From positions 33,894 to 97,893 of the forward strand of contig DATJMX010000030.1 in the NCBI GenBank assembly GCA_035508495.1: a stretch of DNA of 64,000 nt. The letters are read 5' to 3'. Below the pieces are notes generated by a model. That model was not told the DNA's origin. It was given only the letters and a program-made list of their open reading frames with translations, and ran no database searches. The position numbers were made by a program, and so were the translations under genes. The DNA comes from Candidatus Binataceae bacterium (GTDB lineage: Bacteria > Desulfobacterota > Binatia > Binatales > Binataceae). Positions 4,766 through 57,023 of the stretch are shown here, piece after piece (positions within the stretch are counted from its first letter, which is position 1; the number at the start of each line of letters is the position of its first letter).

Positions 4766-5764
4766 ATGGCGTCCAAAGTCGTTGAGGTTCACCCGGGAAT
4801 CTACGAAATCTTCCTGCCGCTGCCGATGCGGCCCACGATCATCAACGTCTACCTGGTCGATTGTCACGGCGGGTGGGCGCTTGTTGACACGGGGATGAAT
4901 TCGCCCGAAAGCGTGGCGACGCTCGAAGAGGCGTTCGACCAGGTCGGGATGAAGGCCGAGGATCTCACGGTGATCATCGGCACGCATCATCACATTGATC
5001 ACTTCGGCGCATCCGGCGAGCTGCGGCGCAGGAGCCGCGCGATTGTGCATCTGCACGCGCTTGAGGCGGAGCGTGCAAACCGCATGATTGCGTTCGGCTC
5101 AATGGGTGGGCACGCCGAGCGGCCCGAATCGCGCGCGTTCTTTACGAGCCACGGCTTTCCGATCGAGCAGTTCAATCCGACCGGGATGCGCCCGGCGTGG
5201 ATGGGCACCTCGATGTACGATCCCGTCGTGACGCCGGATCGTTTCATAGGCGACGGCGATGTGATCAAGGTCGGCGATCGCGAGTTCGAAGTGATCTGGA
5301 CACCGGGTCATTCACCTGGTCACAACGTGATCTATCTGCGGCGCGAGAAAGTGATGATCGTAGGTGATCATCTGCTACCCAAGATAACTCCTCACGTCGG
5401 AATCTACCCTGATAGCAGCGGGATGAATCCGCTTGGCGATTTCATCAACTCGCAAAAGAAAGTGCAGAAATTCGATGTCGAGCTGGTGCTACCTGCCCAT
5501 GGTGGCGTCTACCATGACCATCGGCATCGCGCGAATCAGCTCATCGAGCATCATCGCTATCGCGAAGAGGAGATGCTCGATCTGACGCGCAAAAAACCTC
5601 AAACAGCTTTTGAAGTCGCGCATCAGATTTTTGGCGAGGAGCGCCCGATCTTCCATGTAATGGCGGCGACGTTCGAGACGTTGGCCCATCTGGAACTTGC
5701 CTATTTGGAAGGCCGTGCTAAAAAAATGGAACATGAGGCGCGAATTGTTTATCAGGCCTTATGA
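4766..5764 (+). CDS. MBL-fold metallo-hydrolase
   Basis: THHHIDHFG (HxHxDH) zinc-binding motif, then GHSPGH. Confidence 0.8.
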   Translation: MASKVVEVHPGIYEIFLPLPMRPTIINVYLVDCHGGWALVDTGMNSPESVATLEEAFDQVGMKAEDLTVIIGTHHHIDHFGASGELRRRSRAIVHLHALEAERANRMIAFGSMGGHAERPESRAFFTSHGFPIEQFNPTGMRPAWMGTSMYDPVVTPDRFIGDGDVIKVGDREFEVIWTPGHSPGHNVIYLRREKVMIVGDHLLPKITPHVGIYPDSSGMNPLGDFINSQKKVQKFDVELVLPAHGGVYHDHRHRANQLIEHHRYREEEMLDLTRKKPQTAFEVAHQIFGEERPIFHVMAATFETLAHLELAYLEGRAKKMEHEARIVYQAL

Positions 5765-5896
5765 ACAACCCTTGGATTATGCCGAGATTACAGGGGGTTT
5801 GCTAATTCTTTGAATCGGTGTATTTTGGCGCTGCTTTGACCTGCGCGGCGGTGACTTGTTAGATAGCGGAGGGGTCCAAGACTGAAGGAGGATGCC

Positions 5897-6274
5897 ATGA
5901 AACGCACAATAGGATTTGCGCTGGCCACAGGGCTGGCATTGCTGGTTGCCGGATGCGCCAGTCAGGGGGGAGGCGCAAGCAGCGGGGCAGCAGGCGGAGG
6001 GATGGCTGAGGCTCAGCCCGCCGCGGCCAGAAATTTCAATCTCGCGGTCAAGTGTCCGGGAGTTCACTATCTGAAGAAGAAGGGCTGGACCGATCAGCAG
6101 ATCATGGAGCAGGAGTCGCTGACCGAAGCGTCCGACATCCCTGCTTGCGAGGACTGGGTAGCGCATCAGCCCAAGGGCTACGTGCCTGCCGCACCTCCGG
6201 GATCGACTGCGGCGGCGGCTGTCAAGGCGTCTAACGCGCCTGGACCCAATGCTGCGCCGTCACCTGCGCAATAA
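5897..6274 (+). CDS. hypothetical lipoprotein
   Basis: MKRTIGFALATGLALLVAGCASQ: signal peptide plus lipobox LVAGC. Confidence 0.5.
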   Translation: MKRTIGFALATGLALLVAGCASQGGGASSGAAGGGMAEAQPAAARNFNLAVKCPGVHYLKKKGWTDQQIMEQESLTEASDIPACEDWVAHQPKGYVPAAPPGSTAAAAVKASNAPGPNAAPSPAQ

Positions 6275-6333
6275 GGTTCTGATCGAACAATCGGTCGCGC
6301 ACATCGCGTGACCGGCGCCGGCTCGGGGGAAAA

Positions 6334-6490
6334 CGAAGCGGCGCAGCGCTCATGGAAGCGCCGCGCCGCTTTTGTTCATTTGTGGCGAGCACAAAAGACT
6401 CACCGCAAAGACCCGAGGGCACAAAGCCAAGGGATCTTACTTCCCTTGGTGGCTTGGTGGTTGTCTGATTTTCTGCGGCGAAGCTTCGAC
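6334..6490. repeat. dispersed repeat family D-related copy (rearranged)
   Basis: ACGAAGCGGCGCAGCGC...GCGCCGCGCCGCTTT hairpin, then GGCACAAAGCCAAGGGATC and a second hairpin CCAAGGGATCTTACTTCCCTTGG. Confidence 0.45.
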
Positions 6491-6572: not shown

Positions 6573-7007
6573 TTAGTTTGCGCGCGCGGCGCGCTTCGCT
6601 TCGCGATGCGCCGGGGCGCTGATACGCCCACTGCGGACCACCGGTGAACGGCGCGCGAGACGGCGCGTCGACACGCCGGCCAGCTGCTGGCTGCGCCATT
6701 CGCGCAGACCCTTGCGCAGGAACCCAGGCTCGATGCCGAGCGTTTCGCAAACCACCTCGAACGAGAACGGGCCTTCGCCGCCCTCGCCGCACAGCCACTG
6801 CTCGGCCTCATTGAACAGGCGCTTGCGGGCGCCAGTCTTCGCGTCGGCGTTATTCTGGAAGCATCGCAGCGCGTCCTCGAGAATCGCCATCATCAGCTTT
6901 TTGACGGGGCGGATCGAGCTATCGTCGCGCCGGCTGTCATAGAACTGCTCGGGCGTCAGAACGTCCGGAACAAAGAGATTCCCCAATGCGCTGTTTTCCC
7001 ATTCCAT
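6573..7007 (-). CDS. hypothetical protein with basic C-terminal tail
   Basis: Start placed at MEWENSALGNL (ATG complement 7005-7007, GGAAGG RBS). No recognisable domain. Its upstream region 7008-7377 is AT-richer and carries palindromes. Confidence 0.4.
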   Translation of the reverse strand: MEWENSALGNLFVPDVLTPEQFYDSRRDDSSIRPVKKLMMAILEDALRCFQNNADAKTGARKRLFNEAEQWLCGEGGEGPFSFEVVCETLGIEPGFLRKGLREWRSQQLAGVSTRRLARRSPVVRSGRISAPAHREAKRAARAN

Positions 7008-7197
7008 TGTCGTGTGCCTTCCCACTGACCCGGCTGTTAATCGAAGTGCTGCTCTCATGAGCCGCCGGGTTCTGAACTTAGACGCCAGTAGCTCAAGCAA
7101 TATTCATACCGCTGCCCAATTCAGCACCATCGAGCACGCGCAATCGAATGATCACATCAATCAAACACAAAATTAGTTCCGCTTTTCAGTGCGAATC

Positions 7198-7241
7198 GCG
7201 GAAATCATTAGGATTTCGCAAACGTATACGCAATTTGCGAA
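7198..7241. promoter_or_regulatory. two adjacent palindromes (GGAAATCATTAGGATTTCG and TTCGCAAACGTATACGCAATTTGCGAA), candidate operator upstream of the 6573-7007 gene
   Basis: Inverted arms GAAATC/GATTTC and TTCGCAAA/TTTGCGAA seen directly in an AT-rich promoter region. Confidence 0.3.
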
Positions 7242-7377
7242 GGTACTTCGGCGTCTCTAATCGTAACGGATCTGAGGCGATGTTGCCTCAGGTGCGGTCC
7301 ACATTTCGACGCGGTGTCACCCGATTGACGCCATCGCATCGATTGGGATGCATGCAATCGGCTTCGATGCCGCCTGG

Positions 7378-8031
7378 CTACTGCACCGTATCCGACCCGG
7401 GACCAGAGGATCCGCCCCGGCGGCGCTCTTCAAGCCGGAACGTCAAAACATCGATCAGGCAGTCGGCGCGGTTGCGTGTAGCTTCGAGCAGTGTCTGCTT
7501 TTCGATCGGGGTCACGTCGAGATGGAAGCACAGGAAGTTCACAAGGTCCGCGCCGCGCAGCCGCCGCTCCTCGACCATGGTCTTCCACGCTTCCAGCGCT
7601 GGCTCGCCGAGATAGCTGAACAGCACCTCGCGCAGACCCTCGATCGTCTCGTCGTCACATTCGCGTTCGGCTGGTGTTGCCGAATTCCACTCGATCTCGG
7701 CTTGGCGATACGAACGTTCGCGAATCTCGCGCCGCAAGCGGAACTCATCGATACCGTCGAGCACGATGTTATAGCGGCCGTCGGGTAGCTTGACGAGGTC
7801 GCTGATCTTGCCGGCGCATCCGACTTCGAAGATGTCAGGTTGGCCGTAGTACTGCTCCTGCCAGTCGCCCTTGAGTAGCGCCATCCCGATGATCCCGTGC
7901 GACGCCGACACTTCGGCTACCATCTCGCGATAGCGCGGCTCAAAGATTCGCAATGGAACGCTGACTCCCGGAAAGAGAACCAGGTTCGGTAACGGGAAGA
8001 GCGGGATTATGGACGGTAACTCTGTCGGCAT
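7378..8031 (-). CDS. LON N-terminal (substrate-binding) domain-containing protein
   Basis: PLFPLPNLVLFPGVSVPLRIFEPRYREMV is the classic Lon N-domain signature; no AAA or protease domains follow. Confidence 0.7.
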   Translation of the reverse strand: MPTELPSIIPLFPLPNLVLFPGVSVPLRIFEPRYREMVAEVSASHGIIGMALLKGDWQEQYYGQPDIFEVGCAGKISDLVKLPDGRYNIVLDGIDEFRLRREIRERSYRQAEIEWNSATPAERECDDETIEGLREVLFSYLGEPALEAWKTMVEERRLRGADLVNFLCFHLDVTPIEKQTLLEATRNRADCLIDVLTFRLEERRRGGSSGPGSDTVQ

Positions 8032-8180
8032 CGCCGCCTCGGCCCAGCCTAGGACCGTTGCAGTGGACCGGTCAAGATTGACTCTACCCGTATTCGCTTC
8101 GCCAAGTGGATTCGCTAGTCACGCGCGCATATAAGGCGATCAGACGTTAGCCTGCCGAGCACAGGCAGCCGGAGACAGCA

Positions 8181-9356
8181 ATGAATCAATCCGCGCGTCA
8201 ACTTGCAGACTGTATCGATCGCGTTCGACAGCTTGGCCCGACCATCACGGGACACGCCGCCGAGTCCGAGCGGCTCGGCCAACTCGCGCCAGCAATCGTC
8301 GACGCGTTTCACGATTCGCGCTTGTTCCGCGCTCTCTTACCGAAAGAACTGCACGGCTTCGGGCTGACGATTCCCGAGCAGAACGAAGTGATTGAGGAGG
8401 TCGCGAGCTTCGACGGCGCCGCCGGATGGAACTTCGCGATAGGCTCGGGCGGCCCTGCGATTGCAGGCTTCGTCGCGCGCGATGCATTCGAGGAAATCTT
8501 CTCCGACCCGCGCGCACTCGTCGCCGGATCGTTCAGCCCGATGGGCAATACCGCCGTGCGATGCGACGGCGGCCATCGCTTCACCGGCAAGTCCACCTTC
8601 GCCAGCGGCTCGGCCCAGGCGACCTGGCTCACGGCCAACGGCGTCGAGCTCATCGACGGCGCACCGCAAATCCAAAACGGCATTCCGCGCTTCAAGGCCG
8701 GGATGATGCCGATCAAGCAAGCGAAGATTCTCGACACCTGGTCAGTCTCCGGACTCTGCGGCACCGGCAGCAATGACGTGGTTTTCGAAAACGTCTTCAT
8801 TCCTGAAAAGTTCACCTTTGATTTTCCCAACGCCAAGCCCACCTGGCAGAAGGGCGCGCTCGCACAGATTCCCCTGATGGTGCAACTCGGCGGCGCGCTC
8901 GCGTCGGTATCATTAGGGATCGCGCGTCACGCGATCGAAGCGCTCAAGGAACTCGCGATCTCCAAGGTCCCCCTCGGCACGTTCGCCTCGCTGCGCGAGC
9001 GTCCCGTCGCGCAGCTTCAGTTAGGCGAGGCCGAAGGCACGCTGCAGGCGGCGCGCGCGTATCTGCATCAGAGCGTCAACGAGGTCTGGCGCAAAGGCGA
9101 AGCCGGCGAGCCGTTCGATCTGCCCACGCTCGCAGCCGCGCGCCTTGCGACGGTGACTGCGGGCAAGCTAGCCGCCCGCGCCGTTGACCTCATCTACGAC
9201 GCCGCCGGAATCAGCGCGATGCAGACCGCGCTGCCGATCGAGCGATGCTGGCGCGACGTACATGCAGTCACCCAGCACGTAACGATGAACACCGCCCGCT
9301 ACGAAGTAGTCGGCCGCATCCTGTTCGGCCTGCCGCCAACGACGCCGTTGGTTTAA
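8181..9356 (+). CDS. acyl-CoA dehydrogenase-fold flavoprotein (group D flavin-dependent monooxygenase-like)
   Basis: About 390 aa with an ACAD-like domain layout. It sits next to the aromatic catabolic genes. Confidence 0.55.
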   Translation: MNQSARQLADCIDRVRQLGPTITGHAAESERLGQLAPAIVDAFHDSRLFRALLPKELHGFGLTIPEQNEVIEEVASFDGAAGWNFAIGSGGPAIAGFVARDAFEEIFSDPRALVAGSFSPMGNTAVRCDGGHRFTGKSTFASGSAQATWLTANGVELIDGAPQIQNGIPRFKAGMMPIKQAKILDTWSVSGLCGTGSNDVVFENVFIPEKFTFDFPNAKPTWQKGALAQIPLMVQLGGALASVSLGIARHAIEALKELAISKVPLGTFASLRERPVAQLQLGEAEGTLQAARAYLHQSVNEVWRKGEAGEPFDLPTLAAARLATVTAGKLAARAVDLIYDAAGISAMQTALPIERCWRDVHAVTQHVTMNTARYEVVGRILFGLPPTTPLV

Positions 9357-9516
9357 GCGACACGCCCTGGAATGTGGCGTGAGCCGCGCGGCTACGTGTC
9401 CAACTGCGGGCAGGGACGCCCATAGGGACGCGCACCCCACAGATTCTTAGAGGCATATTGCGCCCGTTCATCAACAGTCACCGCCCAGCGACCATTCGTC
9501 ATGATCGAAAAATTCC

Positions 9517-9592
9517 GTCATCCCCAGCGAAGTCGAGGGATCTTGGAGGCCCCCAAAGGGGCCGGTGCCAAACATCGCGCGCAGCGCTTTCG
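9517..9592. repeat. dispersed repeat family C copy (GTCATCCCCAGCGAAGTCGAGGGATCTTGGAGGCCCCCAAAGGGGCCGGTGCCAAACATCGCGCGCAGCGCTTTCG)
   Basis: Near-identical units at 27101-27178 and 56821-56905, and a partial one at 28998-29013. It creates the spurious N-terminal extension of ORF 9501. Confidence 0.7.
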
Positions 9593-9659
9593 TTTGTTGC
9601 CTGTGAACCCCGCCGCAACATCCTGCCGCCCATCCCACATTCTGGTAAGGTCACGATCG

Positions 9660-11135
9660 ATGGAGACCCGGCTATTCATCAACGGCGCGTATGTCGATGC
9701 GGCGGGCGGCGCGCGCTTCCTTGATATCGAACCCGCAACCGAACGCGAGCTCGCCCAAATCGCGAGCTCCTCCGATGCCGACATCGACCGCGCCGTCGCC
9801 GCCGCGCGCGAAGCCGCCGATCGTGGTCCATGGCCGCGCATGAGCGCCGAGACGCGCGGCAAAATCCTCGGCCGCTTTGCCGATACGATCGAGCGCCACG
9901 CGCGCGAGCTCGGGATGCTCGAGGCGCGCGACGTCGGCAAGCCCGTCGCCGAATGCGTCAATCACGACGTCGCGCGCGCCGCGCGCAATATCCGCTTCTT
10001 CGCCGCCGCCGCCGAAACCTGGACCCAGGAAGCCGCCGCGAGCGAGGCGAAGTTCCTCAGCCGCGATCTGCATCTCGTCAACTTCACTGAGCGTCCGCCA
10101 CTCGGAGTCGGCGCGATCGTCATCCCGTGGAATTCGCCGATCATGCTCGGCACCTGGAACCTCGGCCCCTGCCTCGCCGCGGGCAACACCTGCGTGTTGA
10201 AGCCATCGGAGCTTGCGCCGCTCACGTCGATCGCCCTCGGCGCGATCGCCAATGAAGCGGGTCTGCCGCCCGGCGTGCTCAATATCGTGCCCGGCCTTGG
10301 CGATGCGGGCGCGGCACTCGTGGCGCATGCTGGAGTGCATGCGATCGCGTTCACGGGCGGTGTCGCCACCGGCAAGCGCGTGATGGCTGCGGCGGCCGAG
10401 TCGCTCAAGCGCGTTACGCTCGAGCTCGGCGGCAAGTCGCCGAACCTCGTCTTTGCCGACGCCGACCTGAAGCTCTCCGCCGCAGGCGTCGCGCGTTCGA
10501 TCTATCGCAGCCAGGGACAATCGTGCGTTGCGGGATCGCGCCTGCTCGTCGAGCGGCGCATTGCCGACGATTTTATTTCAAGGCTCATCGCGGAAATTCC
10601 CAAGCTCAAAATCGGTGACCCGCTCGTCGATGGCACCGAATATGGCCCTCTGATCTCGGGCGCCCATCGCGAGCGTGTCCACGCCTTCGTCGCCGAAGCG
10701 ATCGCATCGGGCGCGAAGCTGCTCGCGGGAGGCAAGGTTCCCGAATTGCCGCGCCCCGGGTTTTACTACGAGCCGACGCTTCTCGACGAAGTTGACGAGA
10801 AGTCGCACGCCGTCAACGAAGAGATATTCGGGCCCGTCCTGACGATCGAGCGCTTTGACGACGAGGACGGCGCAATCGCAAAGGCCAACGCCTCGCGCTA
10901 CGGCCTGGCGACGTACCTGTGGACCTCCAAAGTCGATCGCGCGTTGCGCGTAGCGTCGCGGATCAAAACCGGGATGGTCTGGGTCAACAGCTTTTTCCTG
11001 CGTGACCTGCGCACGCCCTTCGGCGGCGCCAAGCAGAGCGGCCTCGGCCGCCAGGGCGGCCGTTTCAGCCTCGAATTCTGGACCGAGCCGAAGCTCGTGT
11101 GCCTGGCCTATGGCGAGGAGGAGCGCGATGGGTGA
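9660..11135 (+). CDS. NAD(P)-dependent aldehyde dehydrogenase (semialdehyde dehydrogenase of a meta-cleavage pathway, HpaE-like)
   Basis: ALDH family hallmarks: ELGGKSP, a catalytic Cys region QGQSCVAGSR, and EEIFGPV. Start at METRLFINGAYVD; stop overlaps the next gene by 8 bp. Confidence 0.8.
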   Translation: METRLFINGAYVDAAGGARFLDIEPATERELAQIASSSDADIDRAVAAAREAADRGPWPRMSAETRGKILGRFADTIERHARELGMLEARDVGKPVAECVNHDVARAARNIRFFAAAAETWTQEAAASEAKFLSRDLHLVNFTERPPLGVGAIVIPWNSPIMLGTWNLGPCLAAGNTCVLKPSELAPLTSIALGAIANEAGLPPGVLNIVPGLGDAGAALVAHAGVHAIAFTGGVATGKRVMAAAAESLKRVTLELGGKSPNLVFADADLKLSAAGVARSIYRSQGQSCVAGSRLLVERRIADDFISRLIAEIPKLKIGDPLVDGTEYGPLISGAHRERVHAFVAEAIASGAKLLAGGKVPELPRPGFYYEPTLLDEVDEKSHAVNEEIFGPVLTIERFDDEDGAIAKANASRYGLATYLWTSKVDRALRVASRIKTGMVWVNSFFLRDLRTPFGGAKQSGLGRQGGRFSLEFWTEPKLVCLAYGEEERDG

Positions 11136-11994
11136 GATCAGGGCCGCGATTTTCACGACCCACGTGCCGCGCCTGATGATAATCGACCCCGCGGCGCGCC
11201 GGGCTTACATGGGCCGCAACGTCACGACCTTTTATGATGCGATGCCGCAGGTTGAGCGCGAGCGGCTGAGCTCCCTCCACTTCGACACCTTCGTGCTGAT
11301 CGATTCGCACTGGTTTACCACGCTCGAATACGTGATCAACGCGCACGAGCGCCTCGCCGGCGTGTACACCTCCGAGGAGTTGCCGGCGATGCTGCACGAT
11401 CTCGAATACGACTATCGCGGCGACCCCGAGCTGGCGCGCGCGATCGAGCAATCAGCTAAGGAGCATGGGATGCGCGCGCTCGCCTCGGCGCATCGCAATC
11501 TGCCGCTCCATTATCCGACCCTCAACGTGATGTACTATTTCAATCCCGGCGCGCGCCGCCGCGTCGTCTCGATGAGCGTGTGCCAGACAGCGTCAGTCAA
11601 AAACGACCTCGCGCTCGGCGCAGCAGTCGGCGACGCGATTCGCAAATCAGATCGGCGCGCGGTGATCGTCGCGTCGGGCGGCATGTCGCATCGCTTCTGG
11701 GACTACGATCGAGTCCTCGATCACGCGTCGGCCTCGCCCGAGGACATCAGCTCGACGGCCAATCGCCTCTACGACGAGCGCATCATGGAATGGTTCAAAG
11801 CGGGGCGGCACGACGAAGTGCTGAAGTGCGCCGACGATTTCCGCGCCCACTGCTCGCCCGAAGGCCGCTTCTCGCATTATCTCGTAATGGCCGGCGCGCT
11901 CGGCGCAGAAAAATGGAACTGGCGCGGGGAGCAATTCGGCCGCTACGAAGCCGCGATAGGCACGGGGCAGTCGATTTTCTACTTCGCGCCCTAA
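11128..11994 (+). CDS. LigB-family (class III) extradiol ring-cleavage dioxygenase, HpaD-like (3,4-dihydroxyphenylacetate 2,3-dioxygenase-like)
   Basis: Blocks DSHWF, AGVYTSEELP, YDYRGDPEL, ASGGMSHRF and TGQ near the C-terminus align with E. coli HpaD from memory. Translationally coupled to the aldehyde dehydrogenase. Confidence 0.7.
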   Translation: MGEIRAAIFTTHVPRLMIIDPAARRAYMGRNVTTFYDAMPQVERERLSSLHFDTFVLIDSHWFTTLEYVINAHERLAGVYTSEELPAMLHDLEYDYRGDPELARAIEQSAKEHGMRALASAHRNLPLHYPTLNVMYYFNPGARRRVVSMSVCQTASVKNDLALGAAVGDAIRKSDRRAVIVASGGMSHRFWDYDRVLDHASASPEDISSTANRLYDERIMEWFKAGRHDEVLKCADDFRAHCSPEGRFSHYLVMAGALGAEKWNWRGEQFGRYEAAIGTGQSIFYFAP

Positions 11995-12010
11995 CCTGGG
12001 TATCGAGGAT

Positions 12011-12041
12011 TTGACAGAAGAACGTAACTATATATAGTTAC
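12011..12041 (+). promoter_or_regulatory. near-consensus sigma70-like promoter (TTGACA-N16-TATAGT) overlapping an 18-bp perfect palindrome GTAACTATATATAGTTAC, candidate HicB operator
   Basis: TTGACA at 12011-12016; TATAGT at 12033-12038; the palindrome at 12024-12041 is its own reverse complement. Confidence 0.45.
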
Positions 12042-12044
12042 AAA

Positions 12045-12287
12045 TTGAACAAGCTAAGCAAGCTGCTGGCCGAGGCCCGAAACAATCCTGGTGGACTTTC
12101 CTTCAGCGACTTCGAAAGTTTGATGAATCAGGCCGGATGGAGATTTGATCGCCAGCGCGGCAGTCATCGCATCTGGTATTCCCCTGAGAGGTTGATGCTT
12201 TCAGTGCAACCCAGGCGCAACAAGGCAAAGAGCTATCAGGTCCGGCAGTTTCTGCAGATTTATGAAAAAGAAACCTCGAGTGGCTAA
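12045..12287 (+). CDS. hicA: HicA-family type II toxin (mRNA interferase)
   Basis: LSKLLAEARNNPGG...GWRFDRQRGSHRIWYSP...LSVQP matches the HicA/YcfA fold, including the conserved GSH. Start is non-ATG (TTG) and uncertain. Confidence 0.65.
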   Translation: MNKLSKLLAEARNNPGGLSFSDFESLMNQAGWRFDRQRGSHRIWYSPERLMLSVQPRRNKAKSYQVRQFLQIYEKETSSG

Positions 12288-12624
12288 GCAAGACCTGTTC
12301 GACGGATACGGCGTCGAACTCTTTATAGACGAGGACAACGACTGGCTCGCACATCTCACCGAGCTTCCTTCTATCTCCGCCTTCGGCTCATCGCCGCAGG
12401 CCGCGCTCAAGGAACTCGCTGCGGCGTGGGAACTCGCCAAGGAATCGTACGCCGCGAATGGCCTCGAAATTCCAGTCGCACCTGCGCGGCGGGAATATCG
12501 TGGCGTGTTTCAGGTGCGGATCGACAAGCGGGTCCATCGCGCGCTTGCAATCGAGGCCGAGCGAGCCGGAGTGAGCTTAAACGCGCTTGTCGCAGAGAAG
12601 CTCGCCAAGTCGACGGACATCTAG
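12262..12624 (+). CDS. hicB: HicB-family antitoxin with C-terminal ribbon-helix-helix DNA-binding domain
   Basis: N-terminal HicB-like YGVELFIDEDNDWLAHLTELPSISAFGSSPQAALKEL; C-terminal RHH-like RVHRALAIEAERAGVSLNALVAEKL. Overlaps the hicA 3' end. Confidence 0.65.
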   Translation: MKKKPRVAKQDLFDGYGVELFIDEDNDWLAHLTELPSISAFGSSPQAALKELAAAWELAKESYAANGLEIPVAPARREYRGVFQVRIDKRVHRALAIEAERAGVSLNALVAEKLAKSTDI

Positions 12625-12645
12625 CAGCTTCGGAGGAACGCACTG

Positions 12646-13533
12646 ATGAAACTCGTGCATGGAATTATTGCGATGCTGGTGACCCCGTTTCATGACGACT
12701 ACCGGCTTAATGAAGATGCATTGCGGGCCGAGGTCAGGTGGGCGCTCGACAATGGCGCCGAGGGTGTCGTCGCCGCGCCGAGTATCGGCGAGTTCCTGCA
12801 CTTGAACGAGGCCGAGCGCACTCGGGTCTTCGAGATCGTGATCGAAGAGGCGCGCAAGCGCAGCGGTGTCTCCGCACTCGCGATGACCTCCGGCGCGACC
12901 ACGCTCGAAACTCTGCACTACGCGAAGATCGCCGCGCGCCTCGGCTACGATGCGCAGCAGGTGATCGCGCCGTACTACTGGCGATGCGGCGAGACCGAAG
13001 TCGAGCATCATTTTCGCATGGTCGGTGAGGCGGGCGACCTGCCGGTTGTCATCTACCACAATCCCGCGCTCAGCAAGTTCAACATCTCGCCGCGCTTCGC
13101 CGGCCGCCTCGCGACGCTGCCGGGCGTCGTCGCGTTCAAGGAAGTGCTGACCGACTTGCAGCATCTCGAGGCGCTCTACGACGAGGTCGATGGCCGCGCG
13201 GATATCTACAACACCTTCCGCGTGCTGCTCGCAGGTCTCATGCTCGGCGCGGCGGGCGGCTTGATTAATATTTTCGCCGTGCCCGCTTCGGCCGCGCTGC
13301 TCCGCGCGTTCAAGGCCGGCGATTACAAGCGCGCCGAGGAAATCCAGCGCCGCCTTAATCGATGCTTCCCGCGCGGCGGCGAGGAAACTCTCGGTCATCT
13401 CGGCACAACCAAGGTGACAGCCTCCGTCGCGACCGGAATCGAGATGGGACCGGCGCGACCGCCGTACATGGCGCCGGCAGACGCCGCCGAGCGAATCAAG
13501 AAACGGCTGCCGCTGCTCAAGGAGATCCTCTGA
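12646..13533 (+). CDS. DapA/NAL-family class I (Schiff-base) aldolase/lyase
   Basis: TPF...GEFLHLNEAER, YHNP, a conserved Lys in VVAFKEV, and the TIM-barrel DHDPS-family layout. Confidence 0.7.
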   Translation: MKLVHGIIAMLVTPFHDDYRLNEDALRAEVRWALDNGAEGVVAAPSIGEFLHLNEAERTRVFEIVIEEARKRSGVSALAMTSGATTLETLHYAKIAARLGYDAQQVIAPYYWRCGETEVEHHFRMVGEAGDLPVVIYHNPALSKFNISPRFAGRLATLPGVVAFKEVLTDLQHLEALYDEVDGRADIYNTFRVLLAGLMLGAAGGLINIFAVPASAALLRAFKAGDYKRAEEIQRRLNRCFPRGGEETLGHLGTTKVTASVATGIEMGPARPPYMAPADAAERIKKRLPLLKEIL

Positions 13534-13534
13534 G

Positions 13535-14980
13535 ATGGGCGCGCGCTCGGGCAACAACTACCTGTCATCGATAAAGAAGCTGGGCGGCGAGATCTGGCTC
13601 GGCGGCGAGCGCGTCAAAGATCCGACTACGCATCCGGGCCTCATGCACGCGGCCCGCTCGCTCGCCTCGCTCTACGACATGCAGGCCGAGCGGCCCGAGG
13701 CGATGACGTTCCGCACCGAAGACGGCGGCCGCGCCGGAATCTCGTTCATGATTCCGAAGAGCGTCGACGACGTGCGCAAGCGCTCGCGGATGATGAAGGC
13801 GTGGGCCGATTACAGCGGCGGCATGATGGGCCGCACCCCCGACTATCTCAACGCGAGTATCGCGGCGATGGCGGCCGCGCGCGAGTTCTTCGCCGAGAGC
13901 GATCCACGCTTCGGCGACAATATCTGGAACTACTATTTGAGCGCGCGCGAGCATGACTGGTGCGCGACGCATACTCTCGTCAATCCGCGCGCGAGCCGTG
14001 CGCAGGGATGGGCGGGGCATACCGACGCCGACCTCGCACTCAAGCTCGTCGACAAGACGAACGAGGGAATCATCGTCAACGGAGCGCGGATGCTCGCGAC
14101 GCTCGCGCCGCTCTCGGAAGAACTGCTCGTGTTTCCATCGACGGTGCTTAGGGCGGAGTCTGCTGCGGAGCCGTTCGCGCTCTCGTTTGCGATCAACTGC
14201 AACGCCAAGGGCCTCAAGTTCCTGTGCCGCGAGACGTTTGACCTCGGACGCTCGCATTTCGATCATCCGCTCGCCTCGCGCTTCGAGGAGATGGACGCCG
14301 TTGTCATCTTCGAAAATGTGACGGTGCCTTGGGAGCGCGTATTCCTGTGCGGCGATGTCGCGCGATGCAACGCGCTCTACGGCGCGACCAATGCTGTCGT
14401 CCACATGATGCACCAGGTCGCGGTAAAGAACGTCGCCAAGAGCGAGTTTCTGCTCGGTCTCGCAACGCGAATCGCCGAGGTCGCCGATGCGATGCCACTG
14501 CAGCATGTGCGCGAGCGCCTGGCGGAGATGATCACGACGACCGAGACGATGCGCGCGTGCCTGCGCGCGTCGGAAGCCGATGCGTCCGTCGATAAATGGG
14601 GCGTATGCGTGCCGGCGCGGCCGCCGCTCGACACGGCGCGCAACCTGTTCCCGAAGCTCTATCCGCGGATGGTCGAGATCATCCAGCTCAACAGCTCGAG
14701 CTCGCTGATGGCGACGCCTGCGGCGAGCGATTTCGCTAATCCTGCCGAGTTGCCCGATATCGAGAAATACTTTGCATCTGTAGATGCGGCCGCGCGCGAG
14801 CGCGTCGCGCTCTATCGCCTCGCCTGGGACGTCGCATGCAGCGCATTCGCGGGCAGGCAGGTGTTATACGAGCGCTTCTTCTTCGGCGATCCGGTCAGGA
14901 TGGCTTCGGCGCTGGTCGATAATACCGACCTGAAGCCCTTGGTAGAGCGGGTAAAGCAATTCCTGAATCGTCCCACATGA
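13535..14980 (+). CDS. HpaB-family two-component flavin-dependent monooxygenase, oxygenase component (4-hydroxyphenylacetate 3-hydroxylase family)
   Basis: YLSSIKKLGGEIWLGGERVKDPTTHPGLMHAARSLASLYD aligns with the E. coli HpaB N-terminus YLKSLQDGREIYIYGERVKDVTTHP; RTPDYLNA and a C-terminal helical domain. 481 aa. Confidence 0.8.
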   Translation: MGARSGNNYLSSIKKLGGEIWLGGERVKDPTTHPGLMHAARSLASLYDMQAERPEAMTFRTEDGGRAGISFMIPKSVDDVRKRSRMMKAWADYSGGMMGRTPDYLNASIAAMAAAREFFAESDPRFGDNIWNYYLSAREHDWCATHTLVNPRASRAQGWAGHTDADLALKLVDKTNEGIIVNGARMLATLAPLSEELLVFPSTVLRAESAAEPFALSFAINCNAKGLKFLCRETFDLGRSHFDHPLASRFEEMDAVVIFENVTVPWERVFLCGDVARCNALYGATNAVVHMMHQVAVKNVAKSEFLLGLATRIAEVADAMPLQHVRERLAEMITTTETMRACLRASEADASVDKWGVCVPARPPLDTARNLFPKLYPRMVEIIQLNSSSSLMATPAASDFANPAELPDIEKYFASVDAAARERVALYRLAWDVACSAFAGRQVLYERFFFGDPVRMASALVDNTDLKPLVERVKQFLNRPT

Positions 14981-14996
14981 TGATTGCCGATCTCTT

Positions 14997-15048
14997 TGAA
15001 TAACCTCGCCTTGAATAACCTCTCCCGTTTTGCGGGCGAAATTATTCA
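14997..15048. repeat. collapsed remnant or solo inverted-repeat of MITE family A (TGAATAACCTCGCC + TTGAATAACCTCTCCCGTTTTGCGGGCGAAATTATTCAA)
   Basis: Matches the terminal inverted repeats of the 238-bp element at 44113-44350. Confidence 0.55.
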
Positions 15049-15198
15049 AACCAGGCAGAGCGAATGCATCGAGCGTTGTGCGGCTTGACTGTTGGAGGGC
15101 GCGACGATACTTTCGGCGCGTCACGTTTCGCGTGCTCCTATGAAGGCAACCTTCGCAGATATCCAAATCGTTTAGGGAAAATTCGAAACCTGACTTGT

Positions 15199-15240
15199 AA
15201 AAAGCCCCGGGCTTCGATGCCCGGGGCTTTTTCTTTTTCT
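15199..15240 (+). terminator. rho-independent terminator after the hpaB-family gene
   Basis: AAAAAGCCCCGGGCTTCGATGCCCGGGGCTTTTTCTTTTTCT: 9-bp GC stem, 6-nt loop, T-run. Confidence 0.6.
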
Positions 15241-15256
15241 GCTTTGAGGATTTGCG

Positions 15257-16567
15257 ATGGATATGCGTGAAGATTCTCGCGAGCGCGCCGAGGTGCGGGT
15301 GAGCCTGCTCCGGCGGCATCGCGATTTCCGCCGGCTGTGGACCGGCGAAACGATTTCCGTGTTCGGCACAAGGATGGGCGACGTTGCCGTGAGCTTCGCC
15401 GCTGTTATCGCGCTCGGTGCGACTCCACTCCAGATGGGAATGCTCGCGGCGGCGCGCCTGGTCCCTAAACTTATCTTCAGTCTCGTCGCCGGAGTGTGGG
15501 TCGATCGCGTCCGCCGGCGGCCGCTGATGATTGGCGCCGATCTTGGCCGCTTCGCGCTGCTGGCGACGATTCCGCTCGCCGCGATGCTCGGTCATCTCGA
15601 GATGAAGTACCTCTATCCAGTGATTCTCATCGTCGGGCTGCTCGATCTGCTGTTCGATGTCGCCTACGGCGCATATCTGCCGTCGCTCGTCGATGCGTCC
15701 GACGTGGTCGAGGCCAACAGTAAGTTGTCCGCGAGCTACGCCGCGGCCGAAGTGGGCGGCTTCGCAATAGCCGGATGGCTGGTGCAGATTCTCACTGCAC
15801 CCTACGCGATCCTCGTCGATGCGCTCTCGTTCATCGCGTCGGCGGTCGCGATTCGATCGATCGAAAAGCCCGAACTCGAGATTGCGCCGGGCCGTCGTCA
15901 ACGCAGTTTTTTTCACGAAGCGCGCGAGGGCATCGGAGTCATGGTCGCTGACCGGAGGCTGTACGCGTTGACCGCGATCAACGGAATCGCCGGACTCGGC
16001 TTCGCGACGTTCTCGACTTTGTACATGCTGTTCGTCGTCGATGAACTGCGCTTCCGACCAGGCCCGCTCGGTGTGATCTTCGCTGTTGGCGGCGTCAGCT
16101 CGCTTATCAGCTCGATCGCGGCGCCGAATATCATCAGGAGAATAGGCGAAGGGCGGGGCTTTGCGATCGGTCTCGCGCTGCAGGGCGCTTCATGGATATG
16201 CGTCCCCGCAGCGCGAGGTGCCACGATGCTCGCGGCCTTGCTGCTCATCGCGCAGCAGCTCTTTGGTGACGCGGGCGGCACAGTAGCGCTGATCAGTGGG
16301 CAGACGATCCTGCAGATCCTCGTGCCGACGCGGATGCTGGGACGAGTCAGGGCGACGATCTCGTTCGTGGCGCTGGCTTCAATGATCGTCGGCTCGATCG
16401 GCGCCGGTCTGCTCGCCGAGTTCGTTGGCATAAGACCGGTGATGTACGCGGGTGCGATCGGCCTCGCGCTCGCGGGCGCTTCGCTCGCTCTATCGTCTGT
16501 GTGGTCTGTTAGCGCTACCGATCGCGCGATTGCGTTGCCTGAGGAAGTGAAAGCGACGGCCGGGTGA
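15257..16567 (+). CDS. MFS transporter (EntS/MFS_3-like, 12 predicted TM helices)
   Basis: Hydrophobic profile with the RRLW motif near the N-terminus (RHRDFRRLWTGETIS) and the VDRVRRRPLM loop typical of this MFS subfamily. Confidence 0.75.
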   Translation: MDMREDSRERAEVRVSLLRRHRDFRRLWTGETISVFGTRMGDVAVSFAAVIALGATPLQMGMLAAARLVPKLIFSLVAGVWVDRVRRRPLMIGADLGRFALLATIPLAAMLGHLEMKYLYPVILIVGLLDLLFDVAYGAYLPSLVDASDVVEANSKLSASYAAAEVGGFAIAGWLVQILTAPYAILVDALSFIASAVAIRSIEKPELEIAPGRRQRSFFHEAREGIGVMVADRRLYALTAINGIAGLGFATFSTLYMLFVVDELRFRPGPLGVIFAVGGVSSLISSIAAPNIIRRIGEGRGFAIGLALQGASWICVPAARGATMLAALLLIAQQLFGDAGGTVALISGQTILQILVPTRMLGRVRATISFVALASMIVGSIGAGLLAEFVGIRPVMYAGAIGLALAGASLALSSVWSVSATDRAIALPEEVKATAG

Positions 16568-21979: not shown

Positions 21980-23386
21980 TCAGACGGAACCTCGCCACTG
22001 GCCGTGGAAGCCCACGGGCACGCGATGGTCGAGGTGCGCCCGCGCGATCGGACCGCGCTCGATTTCGCTCGCATCGAAGATCGCAAGATGGCTCGCGTCC
22101 CGCGCCTCATCGTAGATGTTGGTCAGCAGGTAGCCGTCGCCCTCGGCGGCATCGTGCGATTCAGGCACGAAGACCGGTTCCGCAAGTGCGAACGCGGGAC
22201 CCGCGTTGTAGATGCGCATCTCGCGCGTCGAATGATCGAAGCGGCCGATGCCGCGATGGAATAGATCGTCGCTGCCAGGACCTCCAATGCATGCGACGTA
22301 GCCGTAGCGATAGGCGGCGCTCGTACGGCGCTCGTCGATACGCGGATACTCGCATTGCTCCTCGCACAGTCTCTCGATTGCGAACTTGCCGGGCTTGTCC
22401 CAATCGATCACCCATCGCGCGAGGCGCTGAGTCGCGAGTCGAGGTTCTGTCGGCGTTCCATCAGGATAGGGAAAAACCGCGGCGTCCTGTTCGCACACGT
22501 CGACGAAGATCCTGGAGTCGTTGCTGAAGGCATTCATCGAATGCCACGCCATCCGCGCTCCCGCCGCGAACCATCGGAAGTCTCCCGCGCCGCCATTGCG
22601 CGGTATCACGCCGATCTGCGTGCCATGGTTGGGCTCCCACGCGATCGCCGGAAGCCCCACCATCGCCCGTTTGATCGAAACGGTCACGGGACAGAACCAC
22701 ACCACGATAAAATCCTGCGTGATTGCGAAGTCATGAATCAGCGCCGGGATCGGACCGCGCATACTCATCGAGCGAACAATCTCGCCTGACGCGTTTGCGA
22801 CGTAGAGCTCAACGTCGCCGTTGAATCTGCCGCGAGGAAAGTTGGCGAAGAAAATCATCTCGCCCGTTTCACGATCGATCTTTGGATGCGCTGTCATGTT
22901 GCGCGGCAATCGATCGTTGAACGACCATCTACCGATCGTATCGAGCGAGTCGGGATCGATTTCGATCGGCGCGTGCCCTTCCTCTAGCGCGAGCATCTTT
23001 CTGCCGTGCCAGACGAGGTTGGTATTCGCGACGCCATCGGTGCGTATCGCGGCGACGCTTGGATCGGCATCGGAAGGATTTCCCGTCGTCGCGAAGAGGG
23101 CACGGCCAGCTTCGTTTTCGAGCTTCCACTGCTGCGTCCGCACCCATCGATTGCGATACGACACTCGTCCGCCGCGGATTCGAAACGCGTGTACCATCCC
23201 ATCGCCGCCGAGTGGATTGTAGATGCCGCACGGCGGAAATTGCGGATTCGGCCCGATGCGGTAAAACGTGCCATCGAGCGATTCCGGCACCTGACCTTCA
23301 ACGACCAGGTCCGCGTCGTCGTACTCAACCCGAACCGGCGCAAAACCCTTCGCCAGATATGGATTCGCTGCAACAGGCGTCGCCAT
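21980..23386 (-). CDS. carotenoid/stilbene cleavage oxygenase (RPE65/CCO family)
   Basis: The four His ligands are dispersed (e.g. MTAHPKID, HDFAITQ, HSMNAF, and a terminal FHGQW); seven-bladed propeller family. Start at MATPVAANPYL. Confidence 0.75.
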   Translation of the reverse strand: MATPVAANPYLAKGFAPVRVEYDDADLVVEGQVPESLDGTFYRIGPNPQFPPCGIYNPLGGDGMVHAFRIRGGRVSYRNRWVRTQQWKLENEAGRALFATTGNPSDADPSVAAIRTDGVANTNLVWHGRKMLALEEGHAPIEIDPDSLDTIGRWSFNDRLPRNMTAHPKIDRETGEMIFFANFPRGRFNGDVELYVANASGEIVRSMSMRGPIPALIHDFAITQDFIVVWFCPVTVSIKRAMVGLPAIAWEPNHGTQIGVIPRNGGAGDFRWFAAGARMAWHSMNAFSNDSRIFVDVCEQDAAVFPYPDGTPTEPRLATQRLARWVIDWDKPGKFAIERLCEEQCEYPRIDERRTSAAYRYGYVACIGGPGSDDLFHRGIGRFDHSTREMRIYNAGPAFALAEPVFVPESHDAAEGDGYLLTNIYDEARDASHLAIFDASEIERGPIARAHLDHRVPVGFHGQWRGSV

Positions 23387-23721
23387 AGGCACCTCCAACG
23401 ATTTCAAGCTGACAATCGCCGACGCTAGCAGCGCCTCAATATCCAAACAACACAAAAAGTCGCAAATTCACCGATTGTTGCTGACTTTGAGTTACCGGCG
23501 GAAAAGATTGTTTCTGTCAAGAGGATTCTGAGTCGGGAGAATATGATGGTTTTCCAGATTTTCAGGGGCAGAGGATTAATTGCTGCCGCTCGCATGCAGC
23601 CGCGTCCGATGAGCCGCTTATCACCAGCCCTGTGCATCAGCTTTCTCCGATCAATTGCCGTTGCCGCCGTGCTTTCGGATAATCGGCTTAGCGCCTGAGC
23701 CGAGAGGAGGGGCAGGTTTCG

Positions 23722-24261
23722 ATGCGATGTCCGCAGTGCGGGAGCGAACTGGCAGCCGGCGCGGCTTTTTGCTCGCGATGCGGCACGCGGCTCTACGTCC
23801 CAAAGCCGGCTGACGTTCGCGAGTACGCGCTCGCCAAGCTGCGGCCGTCGGCCTGGCAATTCGCGCACGCGTTCGTACTCGGCGCGATCATCATCGGCGG
23901 GGGTTCCTTCATCGTTTACAACAACCACGACGCCTGGCGGCCCGGCTTCGCGCTGGTCGCCTTCGGAATCCTCGTGATCACCTTCGCCGTGATCGCGGTG
24001 CGCGCCGTAAGTTGGAGTATCACTTCCGATCGCGTGATCGAGCGGCGCGGCTACCTCGCCTCGCGGCGGCGCGAGATGGAGCTGGCGGATATCCGCTCGG
24101 TCGAAGTGGATCGGCGCATCCTGCAGCGCCTGCTCGGACTCGGCAACGTGACGATCGCCTCGGCGGCGAGCGCCGATTTTGCGATCCAGCTCCGCGACAT
24201 CTATGATCCCGAGGCGGCGGCGGAAACGATCCGCAAGGCGCGCCTCAAACGCCTCGCCTGA
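23722..24261 (+). CDS. zinc-ribbon plus bacterial PH (bPH_2/YdbT-like) domain membrane protein
   Basis: MRCPQCGSELAAGAAFCSRCG zinc ribbon, two TM helices, then a PH-like module (ITSDRVIERRGYLASRRREMELADIRSVEV). Confidence 0.5.
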   Translation: MRCPQCGSELAAGAAFCSRCGTRLYVPKPADVREYALAKLRPSAWQFAHAFVLGAIIIGGGSFIVYNNHDAWRPGFALVAFGILVITFAVIAVRAVSWSITSDRVIERRGYLASRRREMELADIRSVEVDRRILQRLLGLGNVTIASAASADFAIQLRDIYDPEAAAETIRKARLKRLA

Positions 24262-24267
24262 ACGACG

Positions 24268-24918
24268 ATGTCGAAGCGACCTGACCTGCGCTACGAGCGC
24301 AAACTGTGGAAGACCGGAATCGAGGTCGTTGCCGGTGTCGATGAGGCGGGAGTCGGTCCGATGGCGGGGCCGGTGGTCGCGGCGGCGGTGATCTTCGCGC
24401 CGGAAAAATTTATCCGGGGTGTGCACGATTCCAAGCAGCTCACCGCTGAGCGGCGCGACGAGCTTCACGAACTGATTCGCACGGGAGCGCTGGCGATCGG
24501 TGTCGGAATCGCCGAGGTCGAGGAAATCGATCGGCTCAACATCTTCTGGGCGACGATGGCGGCGAGCCGGCGCGCGGTCACAGCGCTCGGCGTCGCGCCG
24601 CAGCACGTGCTGGTCGATGGCCGCAGGATTCCCGGCCTGGCGCACGAGCAGACGCGAATCGTCGGCGGCGATCGCAAGAGTTTCTGTATCGCGGCGGCGT
24701 CGATCATCGCCAAGGTCACACGCGATCGGATCATGGCCGAGCTCGACGCGCTCCATCCCGGTTACGGCTTCGCCCGGCACAAGGGCTACTGCACCGCGGA
24801 TCACTTCGACGCGCTTGAAAAGCTCGGTCCGTCGCCGATTCATCGCCGCTCATTCGCGCCCGTTGCCGAGAGCGCCCAACTCAGACTCTTCGTGGACGCC
24901 GATGACCTCGCGGACTGA
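24268..24918 (+). CDS. rnhB: ribonuclease HII
   Basis: VAGVDEAGVGPMAGPVVAAAV, DSKQL, GDRKSFCIAAASIIAKVTRDRIM. Confidence 0.9.
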   Translation: MSKRPDLRYERKLWKTGIEVVAGVDEAGVGPMAGPVVAAAVIFAPEKFIRGVHDSKQLTAERRDELHELIRTGALAIGVGIAEVEEIDRLNIFWATMAASRRAVTALGVAPQHVLVDGRRIPGLAHEQTRIVGGDRKSFCIAAASIIAKVTRDRIMAELDALHPGYGFARHKGYCTADHFDALEKLGPSPIHRRSFAPVAESAQLRLFVDADDLAD

Positions 24919-29983: not shown

Positions 29984-30080
29984 CGATGTCTAGATTAGAT
30001 ATCTCTTGAGAATATTTCCAGGCCACAAAAAAACCCCCGGCGGGTGCCGAGGGCTTCTGAAAATCGTCTTTCGACTTCTG

Positions 30081-30617: not shown

Positions 30618-30758
30618 CTGCCAATACCTTCCTTATCAGACCCACTATTGTACTTTGCGCGCCCGAGGCTCGCCATAGCGCGATTGCGAGCAGATTGAGA
30701 CATAGCCGCAAAGCGCGCCGAGTGGGATAGTCGCCGCATCAGCTAAAGGAGTGTTGCG

Positions 30759-40874: not shown

Positions 40875-40967
40875 TGGATTCAAGGTGCGCGCCGCGCTAT
40901 GCTGCGGGGTCTGAAATCGGTGGTGGTTGACGCCGACGGTCCTCCATTCAAGGAGAATAGAGCCAAG

Positions 40968-56930: not shown

Positions 56931-57023
56931 GGGTTGGACGCGAACAAGAAAGCTCGAACTGATCCAAACAACCAACCCGGCGATGGCCGATCTCAGTCCC
57001 GCATTGGCATAGAATACTGGACG

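Follow-up and report, generated by a model that had tools for sequence, protein, structure and literature searches.

A conserved four-gene operon of Candidatus Binataceae and its putative 4-hydroxyphenylacetate-type meta-cleavage route

The homoprotocatechuate pathway, encoded by hpaBC and hpaGEDFHI in Escherichia coli W and C and in Klebsiella and by a related cluster in Deinococcus, is a described counterpart of a gene cluster in a 64,000-nt stretch of DNA from a Candidatus Binataceae bacterium (the window), where it occupies positions 8181-14980. Like that pathway, the window cluster has an HpaB hydroxylase, a LigB-type dioxygenase, an HpaE-like dehydrogenase and a putative final pyruvate-releasing lyase. 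Unlike it, the window lacks a linked hpaC, the 5-carboxymethyl-2-hydroxymuconate (CHM) isomerase HpaF, the FAH-type decarboxylase/isomerase HpaG and the hydratase HpaH, and it has no hpa-type regulator or transporter. The candidate aldolase is a class I enzyme of the dihydrodipicolinate synthase (DHDPS) family and does not have the class II HpcH/HpaI fold.

Two other groups of enzymes are related to this lyase. The NCBIfam model TIGR02313 ("HpaI-NOT-DapA") describes DapA-family proteins in 4-hydroxyphenylacetate (4-HPA) operons of Thermus thermophilus and Oceanobacillus iheyensis; the FAH-type steps are presumably retained in these operons. The window lyase resembles them as a DHDPS-fold Schiff-base enzyme that adjoins an HpaB-1-type hydroxylase and is a proposed stand-in for HpaI, but it lies in another subfamily (97.1 bits against a cut-off of 396.7 at E 7.5e-28, a lower score than that against NanA). 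Since the model is already a bioinformatic precedent for a DapA-family stand-in for HpaI, the novelty of the present case is tempered. The trans-o-hydroxybenzylidenepyruvate hydratase-aldolases NahE and PhdJ share with the window lyase the TIM barrel of the N-acetylneuraminate lyase (NAL)/DHDPS family, the Lys and Tyr residues, several motifs and a setting in aromatic catabolism with pyruvate release. The window protein differs in being about 35 residues shorter and 25% identical, and its expected substrate is an aliphatic tri- or dicarboxylate rather than an aryl enone.

On balance, family assignments, residue conservation and gene context make it somewhat probable that the cluster encodes a compact 4-HPA-type meta-cleavage route, closed by a class I aldolase that is possibly NahE-like, together with an incidental hicAB cassette. 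Families were assigned by Pfam and NCBIfam profile scans with model-specific cut-offs, and relatives were viewed as loci of about 20 kb fetched around the lyase.

The four-gene operon and its relatives

The functional unit is a four-gene operon on the + strand (9660-14980), closed by a strong intrinsic terminator with a 14-bp stem and a T run (15199-15232, +), the sole one 3' of HpaB. The operon begins with an NAD(P)-dependent aldehyde dehydrogenase (ALDH) of the HpaE or 2-hydroxymuconate-semialdehyde dehydrogenase (HMSD) type (9660-11135, Aldedh E 2.7e-157), followed by a single-subunit LigB-type (class III) extradiol dioxygenase (11128-11994, LigB E 2.8e-36). The third gene encodes the class I (Schiff-base) pyruvate lyase of the DHDPS/NAL family (12646-13533, DHDPS E 4.5e-45). 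The fourth encodes the HpaB-1 type oxygenase component of a two-component 4-HPA 3-monooxygenase (13535-14980, HpaB_N E 6e-87 and HpaB E 9e-64). The full + strand order is ACAD, ALDH, LigB, hicA, hicB, DHDPS and HpaB, where ACAD stands for a flavoprotein with an acyl-CoA dehydrogenase fold. All seven are intact open reading frames (ORFs) with strong family matches, so the gene inventory of the original prediction holds.

The translational coupling that had been proposed between the dioxygenase and ALDH genes is also seen, since the LigB start (ATG 11128) overlaps the ALDH stop (TGA 11133-11135) by 8 nt and follows a GAGGAGGAG ribosome-binding site. A gap of 1 nt separates the DHDPS stop (13531-13533) from the HpaB ATG at 13535. 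The ALDH ORF is formally open from 9501. Since homologues (491 aa) begin at ATG 9660 and lack the 53-codon extension (9501-9659), this extension is probably untranslated. Upstream, the cluster is bounded by a LON-domain gene, a gene with a metallo-beta-lactamase (MBL) fold and other housekeeping-type genes. Downstream are a major facilitator superfamily (MFS) exporter gene and then queA-tgt-yajC-secD. The MFS gene (15257-16567) was considered as an HpaX-like transporter and rejected; it lies beyond the terminator, its type is that of the EntS/DHA3 exporters, and apart from the window only one related locus (L001) has it.

Within Candidatus Binataceae the four-gene operon is passed on by vertical descent and keeps a single chromosomal position, at which about 50 species carry it. 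The exact sequence of the window HpaB returned no record on look-up; context was therefore drawn from relatives. Homologues of the lyase carry the names Candidatus Binataceae or Binatus, and gene order was mapped in the Binataceae loci retrieved through it, 47 of which were informative. ALDH, LigB, DHDPS and HpaB occur in the same order at the same site in 34 of them, and the shared neighbours at this site are the MBL gene, two hypothetical genes and the LON-domain gene. ALDH is absent in 10 of the 47 loci, LigB in two and both in one (L003). All of these retain DHDPS and HpaB, which are adjacent in every Binataceae locus. Purifying selection is indicated by identities of 72-96% for the operon proteins over about 50 Binataceae species and of 56-63% for the lyase between phyla. 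At least one operon gene is split across frames in eight long-read metagenome-assembled genomes (MAGs) labelled 'MFD' (L019, L027, L030, L038, L043, L048, L051 and L052). The splits may reflect homopolymer sequencing errors or true pseudogenes; frameshift errors are a likely cause.

The lyase, ALDH and LigB genes also recur together in other lineages. Locus L089 (9001-13422) has a tight operon of lyase, ALDH, a di-iron oxygenase and LigB, and L086 (9001-13492) is alike. In L087 (8178-13784) the order is a PaaA-like protein, lyase, ALDH, a di-iron protein, a ferredoxin and LigB. The proteins of these three loci are 58-63% (lyase), 48-50% (ALDH) and 57-61% (LigB) identical to those of the window. 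Lyase, ALDH and LigB therefore form an orthologous lower module with an exchangeable hydroxylase. In MAGs that are Eremiobacterota-like or from other lineages, a single di-iron protein of 285-334 aa accompanies the module in place of HpaB. This protein has a weak or faint Phenol_Hydrox match and no NCBIfam match, and in L086, L087 and L089 it represents a type of oxygenase that is so far uncharacterised.

A deeper Binatia group (L041, L042 and L088) has ALDH, HpaB and lyase with no intact LigB. In L042, from a MAG labelled Methylomirabilota, a 71-residue C-terminal LigB remnant (9669-9881, 48% identical) lies between HpaB and the lyase, and the gene of an intradiol (catechol 1,2-type) dioxygenase lies in divergent orientation at 5553-6416. 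The non-Binataceae and deeper Binatia loci examined are all without an FAH, hydratase, tautomerase or class II aldolase.

Properties of the enzymes and the missing hpa genes

The window HpaB groups with genuine 4-HPA hydroxylases. It passes TIGR02309 (570.5 bits, cut-off 480.2), and its PDB matches are solved 4-HPA 3-monooxygenases (9lft, E 1e-144; Thermus HpaB, E 4e-133). In the Thermus enzyme (TtHpaB), R100, Y104 and H142 contact the phenol OH of 4-HPA and S197 and T198 contact its carboxylate (review, PMC10537072). All five residues are identical in the window protein, and RYHST is kept in 53 of 53 orthologues. The placement of this protein in the HpaB family, as first proposed, is thus strengthened, and hydroxylation of 4-HPA to 3,4-dihydroxyphenylacetate is predicted. 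In a plasmid collection, the HpaB matches yielded only the Deinococcus reference cluster and an orphan hpaB in Peribacillus. A query of the same collection with a sequence rebuilt from Thermus HpaB gave no Thermus record in 47 matches.

The best family model for LigB is HpaD_Fe (TIGR02298), whose cut-off is not passed (179.8 bits, cut-off 315.95). Its nearest solved relative is a 3,4-dihydroxyphenylacetate 2,3-dioxygenase (PDB 8iq8, E 6e-33), with which the THVP, DSHW, SHRF and EG metal and catalytic motifs align. The protein belongs to a subfamily of its own, to which the LigB proteins of L086, L087 and L089 are the relatives noted above. The top NCBIfam model for ALDH is HpaE (TIGR02299), again below the cut-off (516.6 bits against 638.35), and HMSD scores 491 bits. 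ALDH is 43% identical to the HMSD of plasmid NAH7 and 32% identical to the aromatic aldehyde dehydrogenase NahF, and its catalytic motifs ELGGKSP and GQSCVAG are present.

The lyase has the traits of the DHDPS/NAL class I aldolase superfamily, namely the TIM-barrel fold, the Schiff-base Lys and the catalytic Tyr. Its AlphaFold2 model (predicted local distance difference test score 91.9) has the TIM-barrel NAL/DHDPS fold, with Foldseek TM-scores of 0.83-0.87 to NAL/DHDPS structures. The Foldseek matches in the PDB are generic NAL/DHDPS proteins at 22-28% identity and give no functional discrimination. Lys165 (K165) and Tyr137 (Y137) are invariant across the lyase subfamily, and the NAL/DHDPS specificity residues are not kept. 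The protein scores below the cut-offs of the NanA, DapA, TIGR02313 and KdgD models of NCBIfam. Against NanA it reaches 121-123 bits (cut-offs 281-382), and the positions of D191, E192 and S208 read R, gap and N. Against DapA it reaches 108 bits (cut-off 206); it has a PSIGE motif and no Arg five residues past the catalytic Tyr. The DapA residues at issue are Thr44 of GTTGE and Arg138.

The lyase subfamily is 56-97% identical across MAGs of Binatia and Acidobacteriota and MAGs that are Eremiobacterota-like or labelled Chloroflexota, with long invariant motifs. Only 41 of 1.84 billion cluster representatives match it at E<=1e-30. Full-length clusters with scores of 190-370 bits number about a dozen, and the next level is a generic DHDPS background at about 130 bits. 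The subfamily is small and discrete. No relative with more than 32% identity was found in the plasmid collection.

Several features of the lyase are NahE-like. It is matched to NahE of plasmid NAH7 at E 1e-13, reads Y-x-N-P and not Y-N-x-P, and its W112 aligns with W128 of NahE. The roles given to N157, N281 and W128 of NahE reportedly go back to work by LeVieux and colleagues in 2018. The C-terminal FPRG...GP.RPPY of the lyase can be aligned with NahE but not with NanA. In the GXXGE motif (PMC10150532) both proteins have a hydrophobic residue at the second X, the lyase reading PSIGE and NahE GTFGE. The lyase is possibly the terminal aldolase or hydratase-aldolase of the proposed pathway. A literature search on Binatota and hydroxyphenylacetate, DHDPS-type HpaI and class I aldolases in meta-cleavage found nothing relevant.

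The remaining genes of a canonical pathway were sought in the window and around its relatives. Pfam scans of about 50 ORFs over 64 kb gave no match to a flavin reductase, an FAA_hydrolase, a CHM isomerase, a hydratase or an HpcH/HpaI aldolase, and six-frame tblastn with FAH, HpaH and HpaI of Deinococcus geothermalis was likewise negative in the window. With the VOC-type HpaD of the same species added, tblastn was negative both in the window and, within about 10 kb, in about 55 related Binataceae loci. The earlier claim that hpaC and hpaFGHI are missing therefore holds for the 64-kb window. Canonical lower-pathway genes are also absent in six loci from other lineages. The HpaB-1 cluster of D. 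geothermalis pDGEO01, whose HpaB is 44% identical to that of the window, has FAH, hpaE, hpaB, hpaD, hpaH and hpaI adjacent, and it too is without an annotated hpaC.

No Flavin_Reduct family protein that could serve as a partner of HpaB occurs in the 64 kb. HpaB-type oxygenases are known to take flavin from unlinked reductases. Since reductases can act in trans, a linked HpaC is not strictly defining for HpaB. The cluster had been called partial, which does not stand in the sense of a loss; the operon is conserved without the missing genes, which is the ancestral state of the lineage.

Proposed route and alternative explanations

The proposed route would begin with HpaB, which, with reduced flavin from a non-dedicated reductase encoded elsewhere, would ortho-hydroxylate 4-HPA or a close para-substituted phenolic acid to a catechol. 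The LigB-type enzyme would open the ring by extradiol cleavage, and the HpaE-like dehydrogenase would convert the ring-fission semialdehyde to a 2-hydroxymuconate-type acid. The DHDPS-family lyase would then form a Schiff base on the 2-oxo group through Lys165 and release pyruvate. We infer this order of hydroxylation, extradiol cleavage, dehydrogenation and Schiff-base cleavage with pyruvate release from the sequence. More speculatively, the lyase might add water to the 2-oxo-3-ene tautomer, which in the homoprotocatechuate case would be 5-oxopent-3-ene-1,2,5-tricarboxylate (OPET). A retro-aldol step might then give pyruvate and formylsuccinate, and loss of CO2 from formylsuccinate might give succinic semialdehyde.

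The role of the lyase as a hydratase-aldolase is speculative. Since no isomerase, decarboxylase or hydratase accompanies the module in any lineage and the lyase has NahE-like features, a NahE-like mechanism would be the most economical. In its full form the proposal, which is a tentative one, is that the lyase is a bifunctional hydratase-aldolase acting on the oxidised ring-fission product, in place of an isomerase, a decarboxylase, a hydratase and a class II aldolase. Four enzymes would then lead from a phenolic acid to pyruvate and a C4 aldehyde acid, and lyase, ALDH and LigB would form a portable unit used with differing hydroxylases in uncultured soil phyla (Binatota, Eremiobacterota and others). 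The original prediction had offered a non-canonical lower route in which a Schiff-base lyase replaces HpaI. Such a route fits both the conservation of the operon without the missing genes and the presence of the module in other phyla.

Should the lyase indeed shorten the lower part of meta-cleavage, a textbook route of aromatic catabolism would gain a new reaction. The operon would then be a compact four-gene cassette that turns lignin- or tyrosine-derived phenolic acids into central metabolites. A function would also be assigned to a strongly conserved protein family of abundant uncultured soil bacteria (Binataceae and Eremiobacterota).

Several observations weigh against the compact route. 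Identity between the lyase and NahE is only 25%, the lyase has a better score against NanA, and Foldseek does not prefer NahE for its model. W224 of NahE is not kept, and N281 of NahE aligns with His251. LigB, ALDH and the lyase all fall under the HpaD_Fe, HpaE and TIGR02313 cut-offs, and the catechol may differ from homoprotocatechuate. A strictly four-step linear pathway does not explain the 13 Binataceae loci that lack ALDH and/or LigB. The constancy of the lyase is partly a matter of ascertainment, since the loci were retrieved through it, and in L092 the same chromosomal site is present with the entire cluster missing. In an acidobacterial group the genes next to the lyase are not LigB and ALDH but encode a 2-hydroxyacid dehydrogenase and a bicupin dioxygenase of the gentisate type. 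Finally, hpaC, hpaF, hpaG and hpaH could be encoded beyond the 64 kb.

Genes beyond the window are central to a doubtful but serious alternative, in which an ordinary homoprotocatechuate pathway is split over the genome. The lyase would then be a class I substitute for HpaI that cleaves 4-hydroxy-2-oxoheptanedioate, and the reductase, CHM isomerase, OPET decarboxylase and hydratase would be elsewhere. TIGR02313 models exactly such a substitution, and the window lyase does match it at E 7.5e-28; however, the score is far under the cut-off and below that for NanA. The use of unlinked reductases by HpaB is established, the Deinococcus cluster is without an annotated hpaC, and the view is limited to 64 kb here and to about 20 kb per relative. 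Against a split, no FAH, hydratase or isomerase occurs within about 10 kb in about 60 loci from at least four lineages with three operon architectures, whereas the reference HpaB-1 cluster of Deinococcus has these genes adjacent. A different substrate or order of steps is unlikely. In one version the lyase would act first, as a NahE-like hydratase-aldolase on a 4-aryl-2-oxobut-3-enoate, ALDH would oxidise the aromatic aldehyde, and hydroxylation of the phenolic acid by HpaB and ring opening by LigB would follow. In another, the substrate would be a different para-substituted phenol, for example a derivative of tyrosine, DOPA or hydroxyphenylpropionate. The NahE-like motifs of the lyase and the missed HpaD and HpaE cut-offs agree with this explanation, as do the intradiol dioxygenase near the L042 cluster and the 13 reduced Binataceae loci. 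LigB is also replaceable or absent in L041, L042 and L088 while ALDH-HpaB-DHDPS or DHDPS-HpaB stays, but a LigB remnant is still present in L042, and DHDPS, ALDH and LigB travel jointly in other phyla. The ALDH is nearer to the ring-fission dehydrogenases HMSD and HpaE than to NahF, and HpaB retains the two carboxylate-binding residues specific for 4-HPA.

Decay of the cluster is very unlikely. It would make the operon a non-functional hpa remnant, first stripped of its lower genes and later divided by the insertion of a toxin-antitoxin pair. The missing hpaC and hpaFGHI, the variable presence of ALDH and LigB, the split genes and the foreign cargo gathered at the site would all be expected of a remnant. 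However, the four ORFs are full-length with intact catalytic residues, the coupling and ribosome-binding sites are preserved, and the insertion is intergenic. The identities within Binataceae and across phyla reflect purifying selection, and the split genes are mostly in the long-read 'MFD' assemblies, where frameshift errors are a likely cause. Compared with these alternatives, the compact route closed by a class I aldolase is the explanation preferred here.

The hicAB cassette and neighbouring genes

The hicAB genes are a recently acquired, self-promoted type II toxin-antitoxin cassette at strain level, with no sign of cluster disruption. This follows from its absence in L001, its low GC content and its intergenic position. 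The L001 proteins are 91-96% identical to those of the window and the gene order is identical, with a spacer of about 100 bp between LigB and the lyase and no hicAB. In the window a cassette of about 640 bp (11992-12631, +) takes the place of this short spacer. The match to L001 breaks off at TTCGCGCC (about 11991) and restarts at the lyase ribosome-binding site GGAGGAAC (12632). Among the Binataceae loci compared, hicAB is confined to the window. Its GC content (55%) is below that of the flanking genes (63-66%), as is its third-position GC content (62-69% against 80-81%). The cassette interrupts no ORF; LigB ends three residues earlier than LigB of L001, and the DHDPS ribosome-binding site is kept. 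The suggestion that the cluster was disrupted by the insertion therefore fails. The case cautions against taking a toxin-antitoxin pair within an operon as a sign of disruption, since such a pair can be a neutral hitch-hiker of recent arrival.

The cassette encodes a HicA toxin of 80 aa with a TTG start (12045-12287, +; HicA_toxin 38.1 bits, cut-off 27; GSH motif) and a HicB antitoxin of 120 aa (12262-12624, +; HicB 43.5 bits, cut-off 21). The two ORFs are co-oriented and overlap by 26 nt, and both domains exceed the Pfam cut-offs. A sigma-70-like promoter, TTGACA-16-TATAGT, matches at 11 of 12 positions (12011-12038, +), which bears out the earlier statement that hicAB lies between dioxygenase and lyase with its own strong promoter. 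It is the only strong site of this kind in the 7.5 kb from 7900 to 15400. Direct reading of the sequence gives a perfect 18-bp palindrome without strand, GTAACTATATATAGTTAC, over the -10 box (12024-12041), which is probably the HicB operator. No terminator was found between hicAB and the lyase gene. A terminator-like hairpin inside hicB (12297-12319) was discounted since the number of such sites equals the chance expectation. The cassette probably supplies a HicB-controlled promoter upstream of DHDPS and HpaB.

Like other type II hicAB modules, the window cassette has hicA before hicB, overlapping ORFs, HicA_toxin and HicB (ribbon-helix-helix) domains and a palindrome across the promoter, which is typical of antitoxin autoregulation. 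It differs in the 20-residue N-terminal extension and TTG start of HicA, and in lying within a catabolic operon, co-directional with its genes and not set off by a terminator from the gene that follows. Upstream of the HicA domain, TTG 12045 is the sole in-frame start; it lies 6 nt past the -10 box. This spacing suggests a leaderless or near-leaderless, TTG-initiated mRNA, which is unusual.

The operon site is a hot spot for cargo in general. The gaps LON-ALDH, LigB-DHDPS and DHDPS-HpaB hold differing cargo in different Binataceae species. L003 has phd/parE (9314-9917), L017 (6703-7476) and L018 (about 6679-7452) have a PIN toxin with a small partner, and L008 (6171-6608) has a remnant of a related hicB at a position other than that in the window. 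Further cargo sites are in L035 (5852-7127), L046 (5737-7219), L033 (7917-9565) and L048 (8485-9171). Other cargo in these gaps includes ArsR with AHSA1 and a glyoxalase, nitrile hydratase alpha and beta, alpha/beta hydrolases and a von Willebrand factor A protein.

A hairpin element resembling repetitive extragenic palindromes, GAATAACCTCTCCCGTTTTGCGGGCGAAATTATTC (15013-15048, no strand), lies after HpaB in the window and is 91% identical to the hairpin in the L001 spacer. The element (GAATAACCTCTCCCGYTTTGCGGGCGA..TTATTC) is intergenic. A related core is found at 44125-44137 of the window, and in L001 the hairpin occurs in the LigB-DHDPS spacer and after HpaB (9935-9969 and 12566-12600). The 13-nt hairpin core has two matches in the window against 0.18 expected.

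The ACAD-fold gene at the 5' end of the cluster (8181-9356, +; Acyl-CoA_dh_2 E 3e-28) encodes a group D flavin-dependent monooxygenase of the HsaA/C2-like type. It is a lineage-specific accessory neighbour and not part of the conserved operon. The gene is separated from ALDH by 300 bp and lies beside the cluster in only two of 48 loci, the window and L001, so its original listing as a cluster member is not upheld. Orthologues with 70-76% identity occur in other contexts, by lpd-lipB-lipA without hpa genes in L092 and among unrelated oxidoreductases in L091. On the same grounds it was rejected as a second pathway hydroxylase or core member. The protein shares the ACAD fold and the Acyl-CoA_dh_2 C-terminal domain with HsaA, the HPA hydroxylase C2 of Acinetobacter baumannii, Rv3094c and IacA. 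Its best matches in the PDB and NCBIfam are oxygenases of this group rather than true acyl-CoA dehydrogenases, with Rv3094c and HsaA the best in the PDB. It differs in falling far below the equivalog cut-offs (168 bits against 450 for HsaA, 134 against 650 for C2), in having no partner reductase and in the unrelated contexts of its orthologues.

Other genes of the window lie apart from the cluster. An RPE65/carotenoid-cleavage oxygenase family gene (21980-23455, -; E 9e-129) overlaps a 472-aa ORF (23425-24843, -) without a Pfam match. Four ORFs of 201-516 aa have no Pfam family at E<=0.001 (40242-41792, -; 56934-58286, +; 30006-30698, +; 55902-56507, +). A CofC-like guanylyltransferase of F420 biosynthesis and two luciferase-like monooxygenases are encoded at 36825-37472, 43062-44087 and 60494-61336, and these genes hint at F420-dependent chemistry in the genome.

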